A stretch of DNA of 35,657 nucleotides. Source: a virus. Lineage: Duplodnaviria > Heunggongvirae > Uroviricota > Caudoviricetes. Under the pieces are notes generated by a model, which worked only from the letters and a program-made list of their open reading frames with translations, made no database searches and was not told the DNA's origin. Location: IMG/VR virus record IMGVR_UViG_2740892433_000005, positions 1-35,657 of that record. One strand, 5' to 3'. This document shows positions 5,436 to 35,657 of the stretch, in pieces (position 1 is the stretch's first letter; every line of letters starts with the position of its first letter). The translations under genes and the position numbers were made by a program.

Positions 5436-7033
5436 CAGCGGTACTCCTTACGTTGTTTCTGAGCCAGCAGACGCTCCAGCATTTTTTCCAGCTCATGCAG
5501 ACTCATATTCAGGGCACCAGTCAGTCCTGCAGGCGCTGTGGTTTCCCTGCCATTGAGGAAAAACTGAGGATTAAAGCTGACCTGGATACCACCAGACGTT
5601 CCACCGCCGGTTGCAGCTGCACCACGGCCTGAATATCCGGCAGCCAGGATTTCAGGCGAGGGGATACGGGGAACATCCGGTGTCATCTCATTTGCCAGAC
5701 GTTGCCCTGGTAAAATCGATGCCCGGGTGGAGAGCGGAATAACGGGCATGGAAGACAAACTATTGATTACGGCTCCGATCGCATTTTTAGCAGACGACAT
5801 AAACCCATTGATATCGGGCAACGGCATACTGAAGCGAACACCTGAAGTGTTATCCCGTATTTCTGGCCCCTGAATGCTCACGGGCATTCTGGGGAGCAGT
5901 TCACTGGCCATTCGCTGCCCGGCCAGAGCTGCAAGCGGAGTGGTCCGCTGCAGGCCAATGGCGGCCCCCTGCGCGATATTGTCACCAAAGCCCATAAACA
6001 CGCGGCTCGGCGAATGAATGCCCAGCTTTTCGCTGAACCAGCCACTGATGCTGTCACCCATTCCGGTTACACTGGATTTGAGCGACTCCCATTTGTTTTT
6101 GATACCGTTAATCAGACCGTCGACAAGATGGCCACCGAAGTCGGTGAACTTTGCCGGCAGATCAACACCAAGATATTTCAGCGCAGCTGCAAAGGCTTTA
6201 TAGAGCAGGCCTGCCGGCGACCAGTTAATCAGCAGCTTACCAGTTCCCGCGATACCGCCGTTAAAGGCTTCCTGAATGTCAGCCCAGCACTGTTTAAACC
6301 AGCTACTGATGCTGTCACCCATTCCGGTTACACTGGATTTGAGCGACCCCCATTTGTTTTTGATACCGTTAATCAGACCGTCGATAAGATGGCCACCGAA
6401 GTCGGTGAACTTTGCCGGCAGAGCAACGCCGAAATATTTCAGCGCAGCCGCAAAGGCTTTATAGAGCAGGCCTGCCGGCGACCAGTTAATCAGCAACTTA
6501 CCAATTCCCACAATTCCGCCGTTAAAGGCTTCCTGAATGTCAGCCCAGCGCTGTTTAAACCAGCTACTGATGCTGTCACCCATTCCGGTTACACTGGATT
6601 TGAGCGACCCCCATTTGTTTTTGATACCGTTAATCAGACCGTCGATAAGATGGCCACCGAAGTCGGTGAACTTTGCCGGCAGAGCAACGCCGAAATATTT
6701 CAGCGCAGCCGCAAAGGCTTTATAGAGCAGGCCTGCCGGCGACCAGTTAATCAGCAACTTACCAATTCCCACAATTCCGCCGTTAAAGGCTTCCTGAATG
6801 TCAGCCCAGCGCTGTTTAAACCAGCTACTGATGCTGTCACCCATTCCGGTTACACTGGATTTGAGCGACCCCCATTTGTTTTTGATACCGTTAATCAGAC
6901 CGTCGATAAGATGGCCACCGAAGTCGGTGAACTTTGCCGGCAGAGCAACGCCGAAATATTTCAGCGCAGCCGCAAAGGCTTTATAGAGCAGGCCTGCCGG
7001 CGACCAGTTAATCAGCAACTTACCAATTCCCAC
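5435..7033 (-). pseudogene. tail tape measure protein, C-terminal segment (out of frame with the N-terminal segment)
   Basis: 532-aa ORF made of 87-aa tandem repeat units followed by a unique C-terminus; same gene as 7012..9801 but in a different frame because of a 110-bp aberrant repeat unit at 7059-7168. Confidence 0.55.
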
Positions 7034-7995: not shown

Positions 7996-9801
7996 GTTGC
8001 GGTAGATAAGGTAAGCTGCTGTCGCGACAGCGGTGATAACGAGACCGATGGGATTCATCATCAGCGCTCGCCCAATCCAGAGAACGGCACGTGCAGCGCT
8101 CATAAAACCGCGAACGAGGCTGCCCGCCAGAACTTTGCTGAGTTTCAGTCCTCCGCTGGTCAGTCGGCTGAATCCAGTGACAAGCCAGCGTAATTTGCCA
8201 CCTTCTCCGAGTGCGGTAGTCAGTCGATGCCAGTTGGTCCGGAGTAAAACAGTAGTTTTCCAGACGTTCACAAAGGGGGAAATAAGGAGATTCAGCCCCA
8301 GTTTGAGACCAATAGTCGCTATCTTAATCGCAAGGAGCGCACTGATGAGCTTAAAAGCCCCACTGACAAATTGCGGGTGAGTCGCTACCCAGTGTTTTGT
8401 CCCCTGAATGAGTGGGAGCAGTTCCTGAGTCAGAGAAATAAAAGATGGAGCTAATTGATCGCCCAGCGTAATTGCCAGATCGCGACTGCTGACCATAAGT
8501 GTTTTAGTGGCTTCAAGGGGAGATTTCAGCCGCTGATCATAAGCACTGGCAAGCAAATCGTTATCCGCAGCCCTGAGAGCACCGGCACGGATCTCTCGAT
8601 ATCTGTCCATGTTGGCCAGCATCGGGCGGATAAATGCCATGACCTGCATATCCGCGAACATATCGCCCAGACCAAAGTTTTTCGCCAGAGCCTGAAGTGC
8701 CTCATCTCTTGCCGTATCATTCTTTATTTTCATGGCTGATTTGAAGCCGGCCAGCGCTTCGGGGCTTTTGGCATTGAGGTAACGTTCTATAACACTCAAC
8801 ATCCCTTCAATCGGAGAGATCCCCGCAGCTTTATAACTCGCAATAGATCCCTGCAAATCAATACCCAGATCAGCAAACTGTTTCTGAGTATCGCGGGCAA
8901 AAATTTTGGTAAGAAAGTTTTTAAAATTATTGGCTGCTTCGTCGGTGGAACCTGCACCGATTTTTGCTATCTGGAGACTGGCCCCGATTTCAGCAACAGC
9001 CTCTTTTCCACTGGCAAGACCCGCCATCATTGGGGCCAGGGACTGCATCCACTTGACCTGATCCGGGATTTCAAATGACCCCTGGTCACCGGCATAAGCC
9101 ATAATATTCTGAACGGCACCAAAATCTCTGGCCGCACCTTTCAGGGAGTTTTGCCAGACTGCGGCCACTTTTGCCCAGTCCTGAGCAGACGTGCGTGTTG
9201 CCGTTGCCGCGCGGGCAATATCCGGCATCAGAAAACCGATATCTGACACATTATCAATATTGTCGCTGATGAGTGAACCCACCGCCTCCTGCAGCTCATC
9301 CTGATACTGATTGTATTTAAGCGCCCAGCCTTTTATCTGTCCGGCAAGTGCATCCCGCGTTTTATTGTCATATTTTGCGGTGATCGACATATCAATCATT
9401 TTGTCCTGAAAAGACATGGACTGCTGAACGGCAGGGGAAACCGTATGATAAACAGTCTGTGCCATGCCATACGCTTCAATCCCCTGACCATACAGCGCCA
9501 TGCGGTTAGCTTTCAGCGCATCACTGGTAGCGGATGCCGCTGACAGACGGCGCTGCTGGCGCTCAATTTGCTCCATGGTGCGGCTTACCCGCAGCAGCTC
9601 GCTGTTGAGATGCTGCATCCGGGAAGAACCCAGTTGACCATAACGTTCTGTTGCACGGGTTAAAGCGTTCTGACGTTCCTGCAGGCGGCGTGAGGTATCG
9701 CTCAGGGAATCAAGCGCACGGCGGGTACCGCTCATTGCAGAACGGAATGTGCTGCCAATCATCCCGCCGATAACAACGCCGACTGAAAACTGTCCCGACA
9801 T
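7012..9801 (-). CDS. tail tape measure protein, N-terminal segment including the first repeat units
   Basis: 929-aa ORF; ATG at 9801 with GGAGG 9 nt upstream; long Ala/Gln-rich helical N-terminal region typical of tape measure proteins, then 87-aa repeats; ORF ends inside the aberrant repeat unit. Confidence 0.75.
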   Translation of the reverse strand: MSGQFSVGVVIGGMIGSTFRSAMSGTRRALDSLSDTSRRLQERQNALTRATERYGQLGSSRMQHLNSELLRVSRTMEQIERQQRRLSAASATSDALKANRMALYGQGIEAYGMAQTVYHTVSPAVQQSMSFQDKMIDMSITAKYDNKTRDALAGQIKGWALKYNQYQDELQEAVGSLISDNIDNVSDIGFLMPDIARAATATRTSAQDWAKVAAVWQNSLKGAARDFGAVQNIMAYAGDQGSFEIPDQVKWMQSLAPMMAGLASGKEAVAEIGASLQIAKIGAGSTDEAANNFKNFLTKIFARDTQKQFADLGIDLQGSIASYKAAGISPIEGMLSVIERYLNAKSPEALAGFKSAMKIKNDTARDEALQALAKNFGLGDMFADMQVMAFIRPMLANMDRYREIRAGALRAADNDLLASAYDQRLKSPLEATKTLMVSSRDLAITLGDQLAPSFISLTQELLPLIQGTKHWVATHPQFVSGAFKLISALLAIKIATIGLKLGLNLLISPFVNVWKTTVLLRTNWHRLTTALGEGGKLRWLVTGFSRLTSGGLKLSKVLAGSLVRGFMSAARAVLWIGRALMMNPIGLVITAVATAAYLIYRNWGAVSGWFKQRWADIQEAFNGGIVGIGKLLINWSPAGLLYKAFAAALKYFGVALPAKFTDFGGHLIDGLINGIKNKWGSLKSSVTGMGDSISSWFKQRWADIQEAFNGGIVGIGKLLINWSPAGLLYKAFAAALKYFGVALPAKFTDFGGHLIDGLINGIKNKWGSLKSSVTGMGDSISSWFKQRWADIQEAFNGGIVGIGKLLINWSPAGLLYKAFAAALKYFGVALPAKFTDFGGHLIDGLINGIKNKWGSLKSSVTGMGDSISSWFKQRWADIQEAFNGGIVGIGKLLINWSPAGGGLSVVGLNSAGLTFRKPLTAALWELVSC

Positions 9802-10294: not shown

Positions 10295-10354
10295 GATTGT
10301 GCTCCTGTGTAAGTTCAGGGCAGTATGTCGGGAGAAGCGCGTGACGGATATTAA

Positions 10355-10385
10355 AGGAGATTAAGAAGAAGGGGCCGGAGCCCCT
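10355..10385 (-). terminator. putative partial intrinsic terminator inside the tail operon
   Basis: On the minus strand AGGGGC-UCCG-GCCCCU hairpin (plus 10370-10385) followed by the U-rich run UCUUCUUAAUCUCCU, directly after the stop of the 93-aa ORF and before the chaperone RBS. Confidence 0.35.
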
Positions 10386-12865: not shown

Positions 12866-13329
12866 CACTCGCTTTCCTCATAGTTCACTTCGGTTAACAG
12901 CGGGCCGGACGGTAAATCGCTGTCTTCGATAAAGATGCTTTCAGTCGCGAAGTCGAGGGCGTATTGCCACAGCCCCCTGACTTCACCGATAAACACCTCG
13001 CGGGTCAGCCAGATACGGCAGCGGCACCCGGGCGGGGTGTGGCCACCGAGAATGCGGCGGACAGCATCCAGGACATTAATCGCCCCTTTTTTACCGTTGA
13101 GCTGGCGGAAGACCACCGTGACGCAGAGCTGGATAGTCTGAGACTGGATCACCGCACCGGTATCATCCGGCCTGTCAAAGCGCGAACCGGCATAGCTCAG
13201 CAGCAACGCGCCAACCGGATGGTTCAGGCGATATTCAGCCGGTTTCTCCGGGAAGTACTCCACCTGCAGTTGCGGCAGCTTCTCGCGTAACCGGGCCAGC
13301 ACCGCATCAAGGACGGGCAGAACGTTCAT
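12865..13329 (-). CDS. head-tail joining region protein (Mu gp37-like by position)
   Basis: 154-aa ORF in the gp36/gp37 slot between capsid and sheath genes; translationally coupled to its neighbours. Confidence 0.4.
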   Translation of the reverse strand: MNVLPVLDAVLARLREKLPQLQVEYFPEKPAEYRLNHPVGALLLSYAGSRFDRPDDTGAVIQSQTIQLCVTVVFRQLNGKKGAINVLDAVRRILGGHTPPGCRCRIWLTREVFIGEVRGLWQYALDFATESIFIEDSDLPSGPLLTEVNYEESE

Positions 13330-21884: not shown

Positions 21885-22531
21885 TTCTGTAATCCTTCCC
21901 GTTCATCCAGTAGCGCGTTTATCTGGTTCCGCCAGCGACGACATTGCCCTGCGTTGTCGATGATGTTGGCGAGAACGTCACGCTGGGAGACGCCTGAGTC
22001 GCGTAGCCAGGCGTCAGCGGTTTCAGGTTGCCCGGTCGCTGTGCCAGAGCGGGTGCCAGTGGCGGCAACTGAGTCTGAATGACCGCTGTCGACGGATGCG
22101 TTGTCATATCCGAGTGCGGCGTTGTACTGGCGCACGAAACCGCGAGTAAACACGCACTCAATGGGATGGCTCTTACCTTTTTCATCAATCCAGCGCTGTG
22201 TGACATCGTTAATTTGCCCCTGTAGTTGTTTATTCCGGCTCTCCAGTTGAGCAATCTGCTCAAGGTAACTGGCTTCAGCCTGCTGCCCGGCGGCCACCTG
22301 CTCCTGATACCGTTTTGCCCAGGCCCGCAACGCAGCGTTCTCAAGCGTTGCCTGCTCCGTTTTGTATTTGTCGAATGCTGACTGCAACTGACTGAGCGCG
22401 GTATTACCGTCACGCTTTGCAGAGTCATGACCACTGCTGTATCCCATGGCATACAGGCCGACCAGAAAGGCATTGATAAGAATGGCCAGCAGAATGCCGC
22501 GCCACGGCAGCTTTTTAACCAGATGCCACAC
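21881..22531 (-). CDS. i-spanin (Rz-like inner-membrane spanin)
   Basis: N-terminal TM segment (WRGILLAILINAFLVGLYAMGY) then periplasmic coiled coil; directly downstream of the endolysin; contains an embedded +1-frame lipoprotein ORF. Start uncertain: GTG at 22531 taken, upstream ATGs would overlap the endolysin gene by ~100 nt. Confidence 0.55.
   Translation of the reverse strand: MWHLVKKLPWRGILLAILINAFLVGLYAMGYSSGHDSAKRDGNTALSQLQSAFDKYKTEQATLENAALRAWAKRYQEQVAAGQQAEASYLEQIAQLESRNKQLQGQINDVTQRWIDEKGKSHPIECVFTRGFVRQYNAALGYDNASVDSGHSDSVAATGTRSGTATGQPETADAWLRDSGVSQRDVLANIIDNAGQCRRWRNQINALLDEREGLQK
21919..22185 (-). CDS. o-spanin (Rz1-like outer-membrane lipoprotein), embedded in +1 frame of i-spanin
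   Basis: ATG at 22185; predicted product MKKVRAIPLSACLLAVSC.. has a lipoprotein-type signal with Cys, followed by a proline-rich segment; entirely inside the i-spanin gene. Confidence 0.45.
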   Translation of the reverse strand: MKKVRAIPLSACLLAVSCASTTPHSDMTTHPSTAVIQTQLPPLAPALAQRPGNLKPLTPGYATQASPSVTFSPTSSTTQGNVVAGGTR

Positions 22532-23255
22532 AACTGCTGCCTCCCCATGTGAGATATCGCGGTGCCAGCTCGCGCAGGATGCGTTGTGGATAATGGCGGT
22601 TCTCCCGCCAGCTGGCAGCATTGCGTCCGGCATTCACCGTGGCGACATGTCCGAACCAGCGCTGACTGTCCAGCCCCAGATATGCGGCGAGCCGCTGGTC
22701 ACGGCGCACCCAGCCCGGGCCACCGTTATAGCCCGACAGTGTCATGGCCATACGCTCGCAGTCGCTGGCGGCACTGATGCGCTGCCACAGCCAGCGGTCA
22801 TAACTGACCAGCGCCCGGATAGCCCATGCCGGATTAAACGGCTCTCGACTGCTCAGCGCCGGCATCAACTGGCTTATCCAGTCGGCAGTGGCAGGCATAA
22901 ACTGCGCCAGTCCCTGAGCCCCCACCGGCGAGATCGCATCAGGTCGCCAGCCGCTTTCCTGATGCAGTTGCGCAGCGAAATCAGCCACCGGCGCAGACAG
23001 TCCCCATTCAAGCCGGGCATTACGGATCACATCATCGCGATACTGCAGGGCAGCCCGCGGGGGCTGTGCTGCGGATGCCTGACTGAAAAAGCCACCACAC
23101 CAGAGCAACATTGCGACAAAGAATACCCATGCCATATGAACCAGAAAGGTCCCGGCGCGGACTGACAGGCGTTCGGTTCTGATGAAGACCCGAAAGGCTT
23201 CGAAAGCCAGTTTCAGGGACATGCATACAATCCAGGTGATCTGCGGCCAGTTCAT
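22515..23255 (-). CDS. endolysin, lytic transglycosylase (SLT domain) with N-terminal signal-anchor or signal peptide
   Basis: Motif ..LHQESGWRPDAISPVGAQGLAQFMP.. (catalytic Glu-Ser of the SLT family); hydrophobic segment MAWVFFVAMLLWCGGFF; ATG at 23255 is 2 nt after the holin stop, alternative ATG at 23135. Confidence 0.7.
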   Translation of the reverse strand: MNWPQITWIVCMSLKLAFEAFRVFIRTERLSVRAGTFLVHMAWVFFVAMLLWCGGFFSQASAAQPPRAALQYRDDVIRNARLEWGLSAPVADFAAQLHQESGWRPDAISPVGAQGLAQFMPATADWISQLMPALSSREPFNPAWAIRALVSYDRWLWQRISAASDCERMAMTLSGYNGGPGWVRRDQRLAAYLGLDSQRWFGHVATVNAGRNAASWRENRHYPQRILRELAPRYLTWGGSSCVASG

Positions 23256-23257
23256 GA

Positions 23258-23608
23258 TTAAAGCCCCATCGCAACAGCCAGACAGACAGCTGCAACAATC
23301 AGTGCACGACGAAGCAGGGCGGCAGCAAACACCAGATGAAGCCCGGTCTGTACGGGCCAGCGCCCCTCAGCCATGAGGCGCTCGTCATGCTTCAGGTACT
23401 GCCCCGGGCGGGCCTTCGGGAAGAGCGAGCGGTCCAGCCAGTAGCCGAGAACGGCGGCGAGGGAGATGAGAGAGAGCTTGTACACCACCACCGGCAGCTG
23501 CTGGGGCGAGACCAGCGCGATGATGAGGAGCAGCAGTACGGCGGCAACAAGCCAGCCACGCAGGCGGGTTTTTTGTACGTCTGCGATAAGGGAGGTGAGT
23601 TTTTTCAT
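23258..23608 (-). CDS. holin candidate (three predicted TM segments)
   Basis: 116-aa ORF with three hydrophobic stretches, first gene of the leftward late block, directly upstream of the endolysin. Confidence 0.5.
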   Translation of the reverse strand: MKKLTSLIADVQKTRLRGWLVAAVLLLLIIALVSPQQLPVVVYKLSLISLAAVLGYWLDRSLFPKARPGQYLKHDERLMAEGRWPVQTGLHLVFAAALLRRALIVAAVCLAVAMGL

Positions 23609-23636: not shown

Positions 23637-23740
23637 GCATCACAAATACGGGGCGCGAAGGATTTTAAAGCGCGTTAAGAGAGCCGGGGATACGGGATGC
23701 GCAGAATAAACGATGAATTATTCACAGAGGAGAATACGAT

Positions 23741-27746: not shown

Positions 27747-28092
27747 CATGGTCGCTTCACATCCGACACCACCAGTAAAAGAACGCGAACCACAAGAAAG
27801 CCTTTTTATGGACAGCCCGGAAGCTCTTGGATACGCGTTATGCACTCTTGTACCAGACATGATGGCGGGATTCAGCATCCTGACAAGTACCGGAGAAATC
27901 AGGATTTCAGCACCCGATGCGCCTGCATTTGCCACTGCAATGGAAACATTACTTCTGGAAAAAATTCACTATATCCAGAACGAACGCAGTGACCATTCTG
28001 CCAACAAACGGGCTGTTGAGGCTGCGGAGAAACTTCTGGAGAACCGTAAGAAATGGAAGCAATGGCAACAAGAAGTGAAGGCTAATTTATGA
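27739..28092 (+). CDS. hypothetical protein
   Basis: 117-aa ORF overlapping the stop of the upstream gene and the start of the transposase gene (ATGA). Confidence 0.35.
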   Translation: MNNMVASHPTPPVKEREPQESLFMDSPEALGYALCTLVPDMMAGFSILTSTGEIRISAPDAPAFATAMETLLLEKIHYIQNERSDHSANKRAVEAAEKLLENRKKWKQWQQEVKANL

Positions 28093-29882
28093 ATCCGGCG
28101 CTGACGCAACGGCTCGTCAGCATAGCCGCCGCCGCTGACGCAGCTATACACGGCGAAAAAGAGGCGGTATACCGGGCGGCGTGTGAAGAATTACAGATGT
28201 CACGCGCCACCCTGCTAAAAAAGCTTAAGGGTGTACGGATGAGCAAACCACGCAAACAGCGATCTGATGCAGGTAAAACGACACTGACTCACGATGAAAT
28301 GCTGACTATTTCTGGTGCATGGCTGGCATCACCTCGCCCTGGTAACGGCAAGAAAGGTTACAGCCTGGAGGATATTGTGGACGGTTTACGCGATAACGGT
28401 CTGATTATTGCTGGTCGAACCGATACTGAGACTGGAGAATTTTTCCCGCTATCAATTGACGCCATCAGTCGCGCCCTCCGCCAGCATCGTATGCATCCCG
28501 ACCAGTTACGGGCACCATCTCCTGCTCTGGAGCTGGCCAGCCTGCACCCAAACCACGTCTGGCAACTGGATGCGTCTATTTGCGTACTGTATTACCTCAA
28601 AAATCCGGCTAAAAAGGCTAAGGGGGACACCGGACTGCGCGTCATGAGCGCAGCAGAGTTCAACAAAAACAAACCCCGCAATTTGGACCGTATTGTCAAT
28701 GACAGGGTGTGGTCATTTGAAATCACCGACCATACCACAGGCTGGATTTACGTCGAGTACCGCTTCGGTGGTGAAAGCGCCGTCAACTTTCTGGAGGTGA
28801 TGATTAACGCCATGCAGGAACGCGGTGGTGCAGACGTGCTGCACGGCGTGCCGAAGATTCTGTTTACTGACCCGGGCTCTGCACTTGTTTCAGCCTCCCT
28901 GCTCAACATGTGCCGGGCGATGGGTATTTGTACCATTCAGCATAAGGCTCACAACGCCCGGGCCACCGGTTCGGTGGAAAAAGCCCGTGACATTATCGAA
29001 CGCAAGTTTGAAGGGGGGCTGCGTTTTCTGAGGGTGGATGATATTGATGAACTGAACCGGCTTGCACGTCTCTGGCGCATGAAGTTTAACCGCACAGCAA
29101 TTCACAGCCGCCACTGTATGTCGCGTACAGATGCGTGGTTGAGAATTACCGAAGAGCAACTGGTAAAAGCCCCGGCACCTGAAATCTGCAGGGAACTGGC
29201 CATCTCTTTACCTGAAGAACGCACTGTTACCGGCAAGTTGCGCGTACCTTTCAGAGGCAAGGAATACGATGTGTCTGATGTTCCTGGTGTATTTGTCGGT
29301 GACAAGGTGATGGTTGCCCGTAATCCCTGGTCAGATGAGGAGGCCAGAGTCGTTATCATCAATGATGAAGGCTTTGAAACCTTCCATGTTATTAACGCAA
29401 TACAGAAAGATGAACTCTGGCAGTACAGCACCAGTGCGCCGGTGATTGGAGAGGAGTACCGTCAGTTACCGGAGACCATTACCCGGACGAACCGCGATGA
29501 GGTGGAGCAACATACCTACGGCACTGCCAGCCGGGAAGAAACAGATGCGGCTAAAAAAGACAAAGCTCTGCCATTCGGTGGTCGCTTCAACCCTTATCTG
29601 GATATTGAGCGCGATGATCATCCTGCCTACCTGCCGAAGCGAGGCCAGGCCTCTGACGTACGCGGACCGCGCACTGAACAGCGTCCCATGACTCATGTGG
29701 AGGCCGCGAAAGCCCTGCGCGATAAGTTCAGCGCCGACGGCCTTACCTGGACGCCGGAACATTACCGCCAGTTAACGGCACAGTACCCGGACGGCGTACC
29801 GGAAGCTGCACTGGATGAAGTCATGGCCACGCTGACCACGCCGGCACGCAGCAGTGTTATCAGCATTGTTAACGGCAACTGA
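28089..29882 (+). CDS. DDE-type transposase (integrase-core, rve-like)
   Basis: 597 aa; N-terminal HTH-like region; candidate catalytic residues in ..HVWQLDASI.., ..ILFTDPGSA.. and a Glu ~35 residues further on, the D-D-35-E spacing of retroviral-integrase-type transposases; followed by an ATPase gene as in Mu A/B and Tn552-type pairs. Confidence 0.7.
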   Translation: MNPALTQRLVSIAAAADAAIHGEKEAVYRAACEELQMSRATLLKKLKGVRMSKPRKQRSDAGKTTLTHDEMLTISGAWLASPRPGNGKKGYSLEDIVDGLRDNGLIIAGRTDTETGEFFPLSIDAISRALRQHRMHPDQLRAPSPALELASLHPNHVWQLDASICVLYYLKNPAKKAKGDTGLRVMSAAEFNKNKPRNLDRIVNDRVWSFEITDHTTGWIYVEYRFGGESAVNFLEVMINAMQERGGADVLHGVPKILFTDPGSALVSASLLNMCRAMGICTIQHKAHNARATGSVEKARDIIERKFEGGLRFLRVDDIDELNRLARLWRMKFNRTAIHSRHCMSRTDAWLRITEEQLVKAPAPEICRELAISLPEERTVTGKLRVPFRGKEYDVSDVPGVFVGDKVMVARNPWSDEEARVVIINDEGFETFHVINAIQKDELWQYSTSAPVIGEEYRQLPETITRTNRDEVEQHTYGTASREETDAAKKDKALPFGGRFNPYLDIERDDHPAYLPKRGQASDVRGPRTEQRPMTHVEAAKALRDKFSADGLTWTPEHYRQLTAQYPDGVPEAALDEVMATLTTPARSSVISIVNGN

Positions 29883-34090: not shown

Positions 34091-34540
34091 ATGCAGAAAA
34101 AACGCCTGATACAGCTTATCCATATTGCCCGTAATGAACTGGGTATGGATGAAGACACCTACCGCCAGATGTTACAGGGGCTGACCGGTAAAGCCTCAAC
34201 CAAAGGAATGGATACCACACAACTAAACTGCGTGCTGGAATCCATGAAAAAGAAAGGCTTTCGCGTTAAACCAGCCAGAAAAGCCAGCTCCGGTTTACCG
34301 CTTGATAACCATCCGCAGTCCAGGAAAATTCGTGCGCTATGGCTTGAAATGGCTGCTGCCGGCATTGTTCGTGACCGTTCAGAAAATGCATTAGCGAGGT
34401 GGATCAAGCGGGAAACGGGCATCAGCGCCCTGCGCTGGCTCAGTACTGAACAGGCAAGCAGTGTTATTGAGAAACTGAAGAAGTGGCAGCGCAGAGCTGC
34501 GGGAGTCAAACATGAGCGACCTGAATCAGTTTCGAAGTAA
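34091..34540 (+). CDS. gemA: GemA-like protein (Mu gp16 family)
   Basis: 149 aa; AGGAG RBS; N-terminal ..LIQLIHIARNELGMDEDTYRQMLQGLTGKAS.. fits the Mu gp16/GemA pattern as remembered; located just upstream of the Mor-like gene as in Mu. Confidence 0.55.
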   Translation: MQKKRLIQLIHIARNELGMDEDTYRQMLQGLTGKASTKGMDTTQLNCVLESMKKKGFRVKPARKASSGLPLDNHPQSRKIRALWLEMAAAGIVRDRSENALARWIKRETGISALRWLSTEQASSVIEKLKKWQRRAAGVKHERPESVSK

Positions 34541-34910
34541 GGGGCCGGAACTCCTGGTGGAACTGGCACAGCATACCTCTGAGACCGTTCGCGAGATTAT
34601 TGATATTGAGCCCGAAGTTGCCGACCAGATTGGTCAGGCCGTCGCGAACCGAATGATGCAGGTCTGGGGCGGGCAAAACGTTTATTTTCCTATGGGCATG
34701 GTATGGAAGGTCAGTCAGCGCGACCGGGAAATCTTCAGGGAGTTTAACGGACGCAACCACCACGAACTGGCCCGCAAGTTTGGTGTTTCGCTTCAGTGGG
34801 TCTACAGCGTGGTTAAGCGGGTCAGAAAAGAAGAACTGGATCGGATGCAGGGCAGGTTGTTTGATGAAGATCTGCCAGAGGAGACGAAAGACGTTAACAA
34901 ATCCAGATAA
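34512..34910 (+). CDS. mor: Mor/C-family transcriptional activator
   Basis: 132 aa; C-terminal ..GGQNVYFPMG....RDREIFREFNGRNHHELARKFGVSLQWVYSVVKRVRK.. matches the Mor/C HTH region pattern (..GGQ.VYIP.G......R...I...FNGRN...L...YGV....VY..IRR.R.); last gene of the rightward operon. Confidence 0.7.
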   Translation: MSDLNQFRSKGPELLVELAQHTSETVREIIDIEPEVADQIGQAVANRMMQVWGGQNVYFPMGMVWKVSQRDREIFREFNGRNHHELARKFGVSLQWVYSVVKRVRKEELDRMQGRLFDEDLPEETKDVNKSR

Positions 34911-34952
34911 TTCCTGCTTGTTAAAGTCCTTTCAAAAATCTCCTTATTGTAT

Positions 34953-34987
34953 AAAAGCACGGTAGACCCCTTACCGTGCTTTTTTTA
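34953..34987 (+). terminator. rho-independent terminator after the Mor-like gene
   Basis: agcacggta (34956-34964) and taccgtgct (34972-34980) 9-bp perfect stem, 7-nt loop, followed by TTTTTT (34981-34986); 46 nt after the stop codon. Confidence 0.7.
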
Positions 34988-35024
34988 TGCTCTCTCTTTA
35001 GTATTCAGGATGCAGGGAGAAAAT

Positions 35025-35657
35025 ATGTTTGACGTTTCGTTGTTAAATCTGCCATGGGCAACACTGGTGACCCTGACCAGTGGCTATATTGGGTATTTTA
35101 TTGCGAATGTGGGACTGAAGGATCACCACAAGCCCATTGAGGTGACTTTTTCTTCGCTGATTTTTGGCCTGACAGCAATGATGGCTTACCAGGCTGTTAT
35201 GTGGGCAGGTCTGAATGCCTGGCTGGCAACACCACCAGCACTTCTGTGTGCCGTTACATGCGGTGCGTGGTGGCGCAGGTACGGTCGCAAATGGATGTAC
35301 AGATTACTGTGGAATAATGATATTTCATGGTCTGACGATACCAGCTCAGCATGGCAGGCAATGTTTGATCAAACAGGCTTCAGCGTTACCGAGGTCAGAG
35401 TGATTCTTCGCGATGGTTCCGGTATGATGTCACGACTGCCAGGGAACTTTGAAGAGTGGCCTAACGGTCCGTTTACCCTGGGGAATAAAGGCGATATGGT
35501 TCTTTACGTCACGCACAGCAGCCCTTCAGGCAGTAACGAATGGGAAGAGTATAAAGGCGTGGTTGATAAGTACTGGGGAGCTCTGGCAACCTATATTCCA
35601 GCAGATCAGATTGCCAGAGTGGAGATCAGGCGCGTTCGTGCGACGAACGATGAATGA
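35025..35657 (+). CDS. membrane protein of unknown function (3 predicted N-terminal TM helices plus soluble C-terminal domain)
   Basis: ATG at 35025 with AGGGAG 8 nt upstream; hydrophobic segments in the first ~90 residues; stop codon is the last three bases of the window. Confidence 0.5.
   Translation: MFDVSLLNLPWATLVTLTSGYIGYFIANVGLKDHHKPIEVTFSSLIFGLTAMMAYQAVMWAGLNAWLATPPALLCAVTCGAWWRRYGRKWMYRLLWNNDISWSDDTSSAWQAMFDQTGFSVTEVRVILRDGSGMMSRLPGNFEEWPNGPFTLGNKGDMVLYVTHSSPSGSNEWEEYKGVVDKYWGALATYIPADQIARVEIRRVRATNDE

Follow-up and report, generated by a model that had tools for sequence, protein, structure and literature searches.

What is the membrane-protein gene that closes a Mu-like prophage, and does it act alone? 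We addressed this question for positions 35025–35657 of the virus record IMGVR_UViG_2740892433_000005 (Caudoviricetes), of which the whole stretch analysed, 35,657 nt in length, is referred to here as the window. The original prediction regarded the gene as stand-alone and separately transcribed and saw in it a common signature of superinfection exclusion, abortive infection or lysogenic conversion genes. Our results indicate that the gene is real, that it forms one half of a two-gene, tail-to-tail cassette and that it is non-essential, optional cargo of the prophage. Tentatively, and with somewhat less than even confidence, we regard its product as a tightly restrained inner-membrane effector encoded by an optional two-gene mobile-element cassette, for which phage conflict, by way of expression linked to the activator Mor, would be the most likely function. 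Within this reading, exclusion or abortive infection by perturbation of the membrane is the most likely role, and control of the timing of the phage's own lysis is the closest alternative.

A conserved tail-to-tail gene pair

The coding sequence is complete. On the plus strand it extends from an ATG at 35025 to a TGA stop codon at 35655–35657, the final bases of the window, encodes 210 residues and carries, as had been claimed, a ribosome-binding site of its own, the Shine-Dalgarno (SD) sequence GGGAG at 35015–35019, 5 nt ahead of the ATG. An alternative in-frame ATG at 35010 was rejected, and 35025 taken as the start, because the former has no SD sequence and the homologues all begin at an MF/MI-D position that corresponds to 35025. 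The G+C content of the gene is 49.9%, compared with 54.5% for the window.

The last 1158 nt of the window are 100% identical to many Escherichia coli chromosomes, for example those of ZH063 and SaT040, which allowed the sequence beyond the window to be inspected. In ZH063 the gene is followed by an opposite-strand open reading frame (ORF) of 53 aa, and the prophage end (...catttatctcatgtctgatca), together with a truncated ssuB, lies ∼360 bp past the stop codon, in agreement with the predicted proximity to a prophage end. The description of the gene as stand-alone does not hold, since a conserved small gene, convergent with it and tail-to-tail, begins 4 nt past its stop codon, just outside the window. 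In ZH063 (locus L001) the small ORF occupies positions 13162–13323 on the minus strand (WP_001571575.1). Small ORFs of this kind are found at a conserved stop-to-stop position in 10 of 12 Enterobacterales loci and in 8 of 9 alphaproteobacterial loci, a range that includes Rhizobiales and Sphingomonadales, the gap between the two stop codons ranging from −11 to +44 nt (mostly +1 to +8), and prophages that lack the membrane gene (the cassette-free loci L002–L004) lack the small ORF as well.

Several observations support the coding nature of the small ORF. Summed over 17 loci its frame contains no internal stop codon, whereas each of the five other frames contains 24–59, and it is preceded by an AAGGAT ribosome-binding site. 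Its products are hydrophilic, fast-evolving proteins of 33–60 aa, which in the Enterobacterales share an N-terminal motif (MTTQNN..D.LDYSENPK) and in every lineage have a proline-rich, lysine-ended C-terminal tail (...PAAPAPGKK, ...PPAPLSNR, ...PSTPPPSPKKK), of which P..P.KK, including its two prolines, is near-invariant. The E. coli ORF matches phrog_15726 in PHROGs, and no match to the small protein was found in Pfam. A strong promoter of the sigma-70 type, TTGAAA-N18-TAGAAT (9–10 of 12 positions; 13396 to 13367 on the minus strand of L001), is found at a fixed distance in all nine of the ORF-bearing Enterobacterales loci scanned. No terminator is found between the two genes, so that the transcript of the small gene must run antisense across the membrane gene towards the A-run/T-run hairpin that lies upstream of it. 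In a metagenomic prophage locus (L017), two tandem small proline-rich ORFs (8609–8716 and 8716–8829, minus strand) are located downstream of the membrane gene.

A conserved adjacent gene pair, seen here in the 10 and 8 loci given above, is a property of toxin–antitoxin (TA) systems, and the cassette could be read as a selfish, TA-like addiction module in which the small gene supplies an antidote, as protein or as antisense RNA, to a membrane toxin that has no dedicated anti-phage role. The conservation of the arrangement across classes, with genes that overlap or abut tail-to-tail, the strong and, by prediction, constitutive promoter of the small gene and the invariable location of the cassette in mobile elements would all agree with this. 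In Candidatus Pantoea persica and Arsenophonus, however, the membrane ORF is intact and the small ORF has been lost, which indicates that the small protein is not an obligatory antidote. An integrated transposable prophage, moreover, has little need of addiction, and the Mor-type box and the company of defence genes described below suggest a link to phage infection; we consider an addiction module improbable. In the two symbiont genomes, which are degraded, the small ORF is deleted or replaced at 6633–6700 of L023 (Ca. Pantoea persica) and at 6633–6900 of L024 (Arsenophonus). In Ca. Phlomobacter (L032) it is the membrane gene itself that is broken.

The cassette resembles type I TA systems (hok/sok) and holin/antiholin pairs (P1 LydA/LydB) in that a membrane protein is set against a small partner or against a transcript that converges on its gene or overlaps it, and in that these systems, too, are cargo of mobile elements. 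It differs from them in several respects. Type I toxins are under 60 aa long, whereas the window protein has 210 residues and a predicted folded cytoplasmic domain; unlike the situation in hok/sok, the opposing transcript encodes a conserved peptide; and, unlike a holin gene, the window gene lies outside the lysis cassette and the toxicity of its product is presumed.

Optional cargo of mobile elements

The GemA/Mor segment of the prophage was found in 640 of 5426 complete E. coli genomes and the membrane gene, at ≥80% coverage, in 115, showing that the gene is present or absent at the same site in close relatives; about 80% of the related E. coli prophages are without it. A variant of 75% identity occupies the same site in other E. 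coli strains (L005). The cassette-free prophages have mor as their last gene, ∼165 bp from the prophage end. Cassette-bearing prophages lose homology to cassette-free ones at about 34867–34870, within the 3′ end of mor, and because the break falls inside this gene the last ∼13 residues of Mor differ between the two groups (132 aa in the cassette-bearing and 129 aa in the cassette-free form).

Among sequenced phages, the related PhiKM and KP12 match the GemA/Mor part only, and the membrane gene is absent from both. The pattern of presence and absence excludes a core phage function. Its conserved position after mor is all that could speak for a gene central to the virion, replication or transposition in this phage family. 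Most related, apparently complete prophages lack it, as do PhiKM and KP12, its product shows no homology to virion, replication or transposition proteins, and we regard this explanation as extremely improbable. Accessory membrane-protein cargo at the end of a prophage is, in itself, an already familiar kind of gene.

Homologues are found directly after GemA-Mor in loci of Serratia, Klebsiella, Citrobacter, Salmonella, Symbiopectobacterium, Arsenophonus and Pantoea. Outside Mu-like prophages their company is of a different kind. The homologue of Rhizobium leguminosarum is flanked on one side by an Avs2/SMEK-like gene and a pVip-like radical-SAM gene, and on the other by ShosTA (ShosA, E = 1.4e-70) and an AriA/PtuA-like ATPase, while that of Allosphingosinicella adjoins an RmrA-like M78 peptidase and a DUF4411 gene. 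Further neighbours of homologues are serine recombinases or resolvases, a Dam methylase, an integrase, prophage tail genes and HigB. The matches to defence models (ShosTA, AriA/PtuA, pVip, Avs2 and RmrA) belong to these neighbours in distant loci and not to the membrane protein. The membrane gene is thus always cargo of mobile elements and often resides in defence islands.

The prophage that carries the cassette is transposable and Mu-like, with a BcepMu-style layout in which late and lysis genes on the minus strand are followed by the repressor region and by a plus-strand early operon encoding a DDE transposase, an ExeA/MuB-like ATPase, Gam, GemA and Mor. The GemA gene (34091–34540; PF06252, E = 8e-41) precedes mor (34512–34910, plus strand; PF08765, E = 1.1e-43), which encodes a Mor/C-family late activator and is the last gene of the early operon; the overlap of 29 nt between the two (34512–34540) suggests translational coupling at the end of the operon. 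The prophage is inserted in ssuB in ZH063 (L001, at ∼13519), a cassette-free relative lies next to ycaL, and a Klebsiella relative (L013–L015) is found at three chromosomal sites. The prophage ends have repeated ATTTATCTCA motifs in common and a terminal ...ATCA. The differing insertion sites and the shared end motifs are consistent with active transposition of the Mu type. The window is a mosaic, in that its transposase (28089–29882) is ∼64% identical to that of ZH063 (L001 5614–7383), whereas the right end is 100% identical, and no match to the whole window was found among the complete E. coli genomes.

The membrane protein and its family

About three N-terminal transmembrane (TM) helices and a soluble C-terminal domain had been predicted for the protein, and both are borne out by three hydrophobic segments (about residues 9–29, 40–60 and 64–82) and by an AlphaFold model (mean pLDDT 85.6) with helices at residues 11–27, 37–60 and 65–97 and a β-domain at residues 119–205. 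The distribution of positive charges (a KDHHK loop, and RRYGRK after the third segment) predicts an N-out/C-in topology. The predicted cytoplasmic domain (about residues 105–205) is a small bent β-barrel that superposes on Sm, LSm and Hfq structures, so that the coding sequence at 35025–35657 appears to specify three N-terminal TM helices followed by a cytoplasmic Sm/LSm-like β-barrel. In contrast to Sm, LSm and Hfq proteins, the domain would be tethered to the membrane by the three helices. A profile search of PDB sequences with the membrane protein returned nothing significant, Sm/LSm/Hfq proteins included, and ring formation and RNA binding would be ascribed to the domain by analogy.

The protein matches the profile of phrog_12870 over its full length (E = 6.3e-134; residues 1–210 against profile positions 1–210 of 210). 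Sixteen of 35 aligned close homologues weakly match the Pfam family DUF6338 (PF19865) at E ≤ 0.01 (best E = 8.5e-6), and a precomputed PF19865 annotation is attached to some homologues. These profile matches place the window protein in phrog_12870 and make it a distant relation of DUF6338, both of which we take to be families of unknown function. It resembles them in length (about 200–220 aa) and in architecture, but differs from DUF6338 in that the window protein itself has no Pfam match at E ≤ 0.1, DUF6338 included.

Homologues numbered 72 in a single-sequence search and 280 in a profile search, all annotated as 'hypothetical' or 'DUF6338 family', and their hosts belong to the Enterobacterales, Rhizobiales and Sphingomonadales. 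An exhaustive profile search of 1.84 billion representatives gave ∼520 clusters at 50% identity, nearly all of 196–245 aa and matching end-to-end, which implies that the architecture is fixed in this family, with no evident domain fusions. The first TM helix (TM1) is the most conserved part (L9, P10, W11, T13, L14, T16, L17, G20, Y21, Y24, A27, V29 and G30), along with H35, and the C-terminal domain contains the conserved motifs SWSD, AW, PNGP, G.xGD, YVTH and IRR.

Homology to a conserved virion or replication protein, which the original prediction had named as the finding that would speak against it, was looked for in Pfam, PHROGs, PADLOC, NCBIfam and PDB profile searches and was not found. 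NCBIfam gave no usable match, a Foldseek search of the viral models in BFVD gave a single significant match, to an uncharacterised protein, and no characterised homologue of the membrane protein was found. The sole paper that mentions DUF6338 is unrelated, and nothing relevant was found in the literature under DUF6338, the phrog identifiers or the WP accessions; no description of the family, its fold combination, its mini-partner or the arrangement of a box within a terminator was found in the literature searched.

The order of the domains, in which a cytoplasmic Sm-like β-domain comes immediately after three TM helices, is the same as in the core of the mechanosensitive channel MscS as it is generally known. 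This likeness would fit a lysogenic conversion gene whose product, for instance a small channel for ions or solutes or an Sm-like protein that binds RNA or nucleotides while tethered to the membrane, benefits the lysogen independently of phages. The exact window protein occurs on at least 1000 contigs, and the genomes that match the membrane gene include many human clinical isolates, which would also speak for it. The protein differs from MscS, however, in having no sequence or profile similarity to the pore helix and β-domain of the MscS family (PF00924), and we think a conversion role of this type quite improbable.

Transcription signals and the putative effector

An intrinsic terminator had been proposed to close the early operon after mor. 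This is supported by a hairpin of 13 pairs, 5 of them G-C, at 34953–34983, which is preceded by an A-run and followed by a T-run. The terminator, as a whole, extends over 34953–34989 on the plus strand and, given the A-run flank, is possibly bidirectional. A hairpin and T-run are found 30–75 nt before the ATG in most Enterobacterales loci, where the sequences differ and the pairing is kept; the arms AAAGCACGGTA/TACCGTGCTTT of the window, for example, are replaced by the compensatory pair AAAGCGCAA/TTGCGCTTT in L005. Since hairpin and T-run are kept despite the change in sequence, the shielding of the gene from the early operon is conserved.

The claim that the gene is separately transcribed is only partly upheld. 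The terminator does insulate it from the early operon, but no good sigma-70 promoter was found between the terminator and the gene. The best candidate (−35 TAGACC at 34963–34968, a 17-nt spacer and −10 TATGCT at 34986–34991, plus strand) is embedded in the terminator and agrees at 8 of 12 positions, below the threshold of 9 of 12 used in the promoter scan; a similar geometry, with a −10 that ends 29–36 nt before the ATG, occurs in 7 of the 12 loci. Of the two signals of its own, promoter and terminator, that would let a moron be expressed from a repressed prophage, the gene has a weak 8-of-12 promoter candidate and, downstream, a convergent gene without a terminator.

A second type of signal is suggested by the late genes of the phage. 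The perfect pattern TTAA-N6-TTAA occurs three times in the window, compared with 0.23 expected, and none of 100 shuffles reached three. The three boxes (2567–2580, 10351–10364 and 23665–23678) are located upstream of minus-strand late genes, which start at 2531, 10294 and 23608 (the holin gene), respectively, and each is accompanied by a −10-like NAT(A/G)CT hexamer at +37 to +42 from the box. In Mu, the Mor dimer binds two 5-bp inverted repeats that are separated by a 6-bp spacer and centred at −43.5, replacing the −35 element (PMC4390567), and the geometry of the late boxes matches this site. Mor is the sole Mor/C-family protein encoded in the window, and the three boxes probably mark the late promoters that depend on it.

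A Mor-box-like element (TTAAAGTCCTTTCA; TTAA-N6-TTCA, one mismatch from TTAA-N6-TTAA) is located at 34921–34934 on the plus strand, just upstream of the terminator hairpin. In L005, L019 and L025 the box before the hairpin is without mismatch and has no second copy in 8–12 kb, and in L020 and L021 it has the TTCA form. At +37 of the perfect box, −10-like hexamers are found in L019 and L025 (CAATAT and CAACAT). In the window, spacing comparison points to two candidate −10 elements, TATAAA at 34950–34955 (+29 from the start of the box) and CACGGT at 34958–34963 (+37, the late-promoter spacing). The predicted transcription start falls inside the hairpin in every boxed case, such that activator-dependent transcripts would lack the 5′ arm and escape termination. 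These signals suggest that the membrane gene is expressed in a Mor-dependent manner in the lytic phase rather than in the lysogen.

The arrangement recalls the middle promoter Pm and the mom operon of Mu, where a pair of short inverted repeats, 6 bp apart, serves the activator in place of a −35 element (PMC4390567); the candidate box of the window is built alike. A further likeness is that the candidate promoter would follow mor immediately, and that the transposable phage carries at its right end an accessory gene that is dispensable and appears to be under tight control. The arrangement differs in that the TTAA-N6-TTAA box is deduced from sequence, in that the window gene is unrelated to C, Com and Mom, and in that the late genes of this phage are on the other strand.

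These signals bear directly on the role first envisaged for the gene, namely superinfection exclusion by a protein that the lysogen expresses constitutively from a weak promoter of its own and that blocks the entry of phage DNA without killing the cell. Its insulation from the lytic early operon by the terminator, the sigma-70-like promoter within the terminator, which has counterparts at the same distance in 7 of the 12 loci, and the variable presence of a predicted inner-membrane protein at the end of a prophage are in line with such a role. This promoter is weak, however, and falls below the scan threshold, the strong convergent promoter would send antisense transcripts over the gene, and no similarity to known exclusion proteins emerged from the PHROGs, PADLOC and PDB profile searches. 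The late-promoter-type box upstream, in addition, suggests lytic-phase control, and expression confined to lytic growth is what the original prediction itself had held to be incompatible with a lysogen-expressed exclusion gene. Like P22 SieA, T4 Imm and HK97 gp15, the window protein is an accessory inner-membrane protein encoded by a phage; unlike them, it has a partner gene and signals that point to lytic-phase control, and it is not related to them in sequence or fold. We consider constitutive exclusion in the lysogen unlikely. The broader signature of exclusion, abortive infection or lysogenic conversion fares better where it concerns an accessory, insulated gene with homologues in mobile elements and defence islands than where it concerns a stand-alone gene with a good promoter.

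Lytic-phase expression would also suit an accessory lysis-control pair, in which a Mor-activated, holin- or pinholin-like membrane protein and a small antiholin-like inhibitor tune the timing of lysis. The predicted three-TM, N-out/C-in topology is that known for class I holins, the separate small partner is reminiscent of the well-known LydA/LydB pair of P1, and the promoter of the holin/transglycosylase operon carries a box of this type (23665–23678). The TM part, furthermore, weakly resembles LydA-type holins in structure. On the other hand, this resemblance is not significant (Foldseek E = 0.04–0.7), and no holin family of Pfam or PHROGs matches the protein. The phage already has a lysis cassette on the other strand (about 22515–23608), with a holin (23258–23608) and an SLT transglycosylase; the gene is missing from about 80% of related prophages, and homologues also occur in non-phage defence islands. 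A role in lysis control is, in our judgement, unlikely.

In the restrained-effector reading that we prefer, the cassette lies between mor and the transposase sites at the right end of a Mu-like (BcepMu-style) prophage. A KDHHK loop and a conserved polar stripe along TM1 characterise the three TM helices, which would anchor a cytoplasmic Sm-like β-barrel, whose fold may drive oligomerisation into rings; at a sufficient protein level the helices may then form a pore or otherwise disturb the membrane. Restraint would be exerted in three ways. The conserved terminator would halt read-through from the early operon, the membrane gene would have no strong sigma-70 promoter of its own, and the convergent small gene would send antisense transcription over it from a strong, conserved promoter. 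The disordered small protein of 33–60 aa may, in addition, bind the barrel domain through its proline-rich, lysine-ended tail. Mor would probably switch the membrane gene on from the box just upstream of the hairpin, with a start inside the hairpin and escape from termination, either upon induction of the prophage or upon entry of a related Mu-like phage. We infer the toxicity of the protein, its dependence on Mor and the biological role of the cassette.

Several observations weigh against this scheme. The core of the window box carries a mismatch, and its imperfect form, which is found at two further sites in the window, both inside genes, is by itself weakly significant. TATAAA is the better −10 of the window, but it lies 8 bp too close to the box, while CACGGT, at the right distance, retains just A2 and T6; in L005 a perfect box is combined with a poor −10, and 5 of the 12 Enterobacterales loci have no box. 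Oligomerisation is argued from the Sm fold by analogy alone, and binding of the barrel by the proline-rich tail is pure speculation. The two symbiont genomes that retain the membrane ORF without the small ORF are at odds with an indispensable partner. The membrane protein matched none of the families in PADLOC-DB 2.0 at E ≤ 1, and a homologue was found in only 1 of 50,697 sequenced phage records, that of Synechococcus phage Ssp-JY41, at 29% identity. This homologue (L036, record positions 1–744) is situated at the very end of a 20-kb linear record, and its coding sequence runs to the record end.

A bolder version of the restrained-effector reading, which we put forward as unlikely, is that a DUF6338-like membrane protein and a proline-tailed mini-protein constitute an undescribed two-gene module that mobile elements carry in the Proteobacteria, in which a pore-forming ring is held in check by antisense transcript and constitutively produced peptide and, in Mu-like prophages, is wired to Mor as an activator-sensing switch for abortive infection or lysis. 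If so, the onset of late development, be it of the prophage itself or of a related transposable phage, would lead the cell to collapse its own membrane. The protein is found in 115 of 5426 complete E. coli genomes, yet the proteins of the cassette are annotated only as hypothetical. A restrained membrane effector would represent a new family among prophage-encoded conflict systems and would provide a first function for DUF6338-type proteins, phrog_12870 and phrog_15726; if the cassette is inert or merely tunes lysis, it would be an ordinary phage accessory gene. The apparent design of an activator-dependent start inside a terminator hairpin, whereby early transcripts would stop and activated ones would pass, deserves attention in itself.

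The region between mor and the hairpin was also examined for other signals. The 16-mer CCTTTCAAAAATCTCC, which lies upstream of the terminator, has no second copy in the window. The Mor-like box was considered as a leftward promoter and rejected, since a check of the sequence found no minus-strand −10 at the right spacing. A leftward sigma-70-like promoter (TTGAAA-17-AATTAT, 9 of 12), directed from 34935 to 34907 on the minus strand into the 3′ end of mor, overlaps the Mor-like box.

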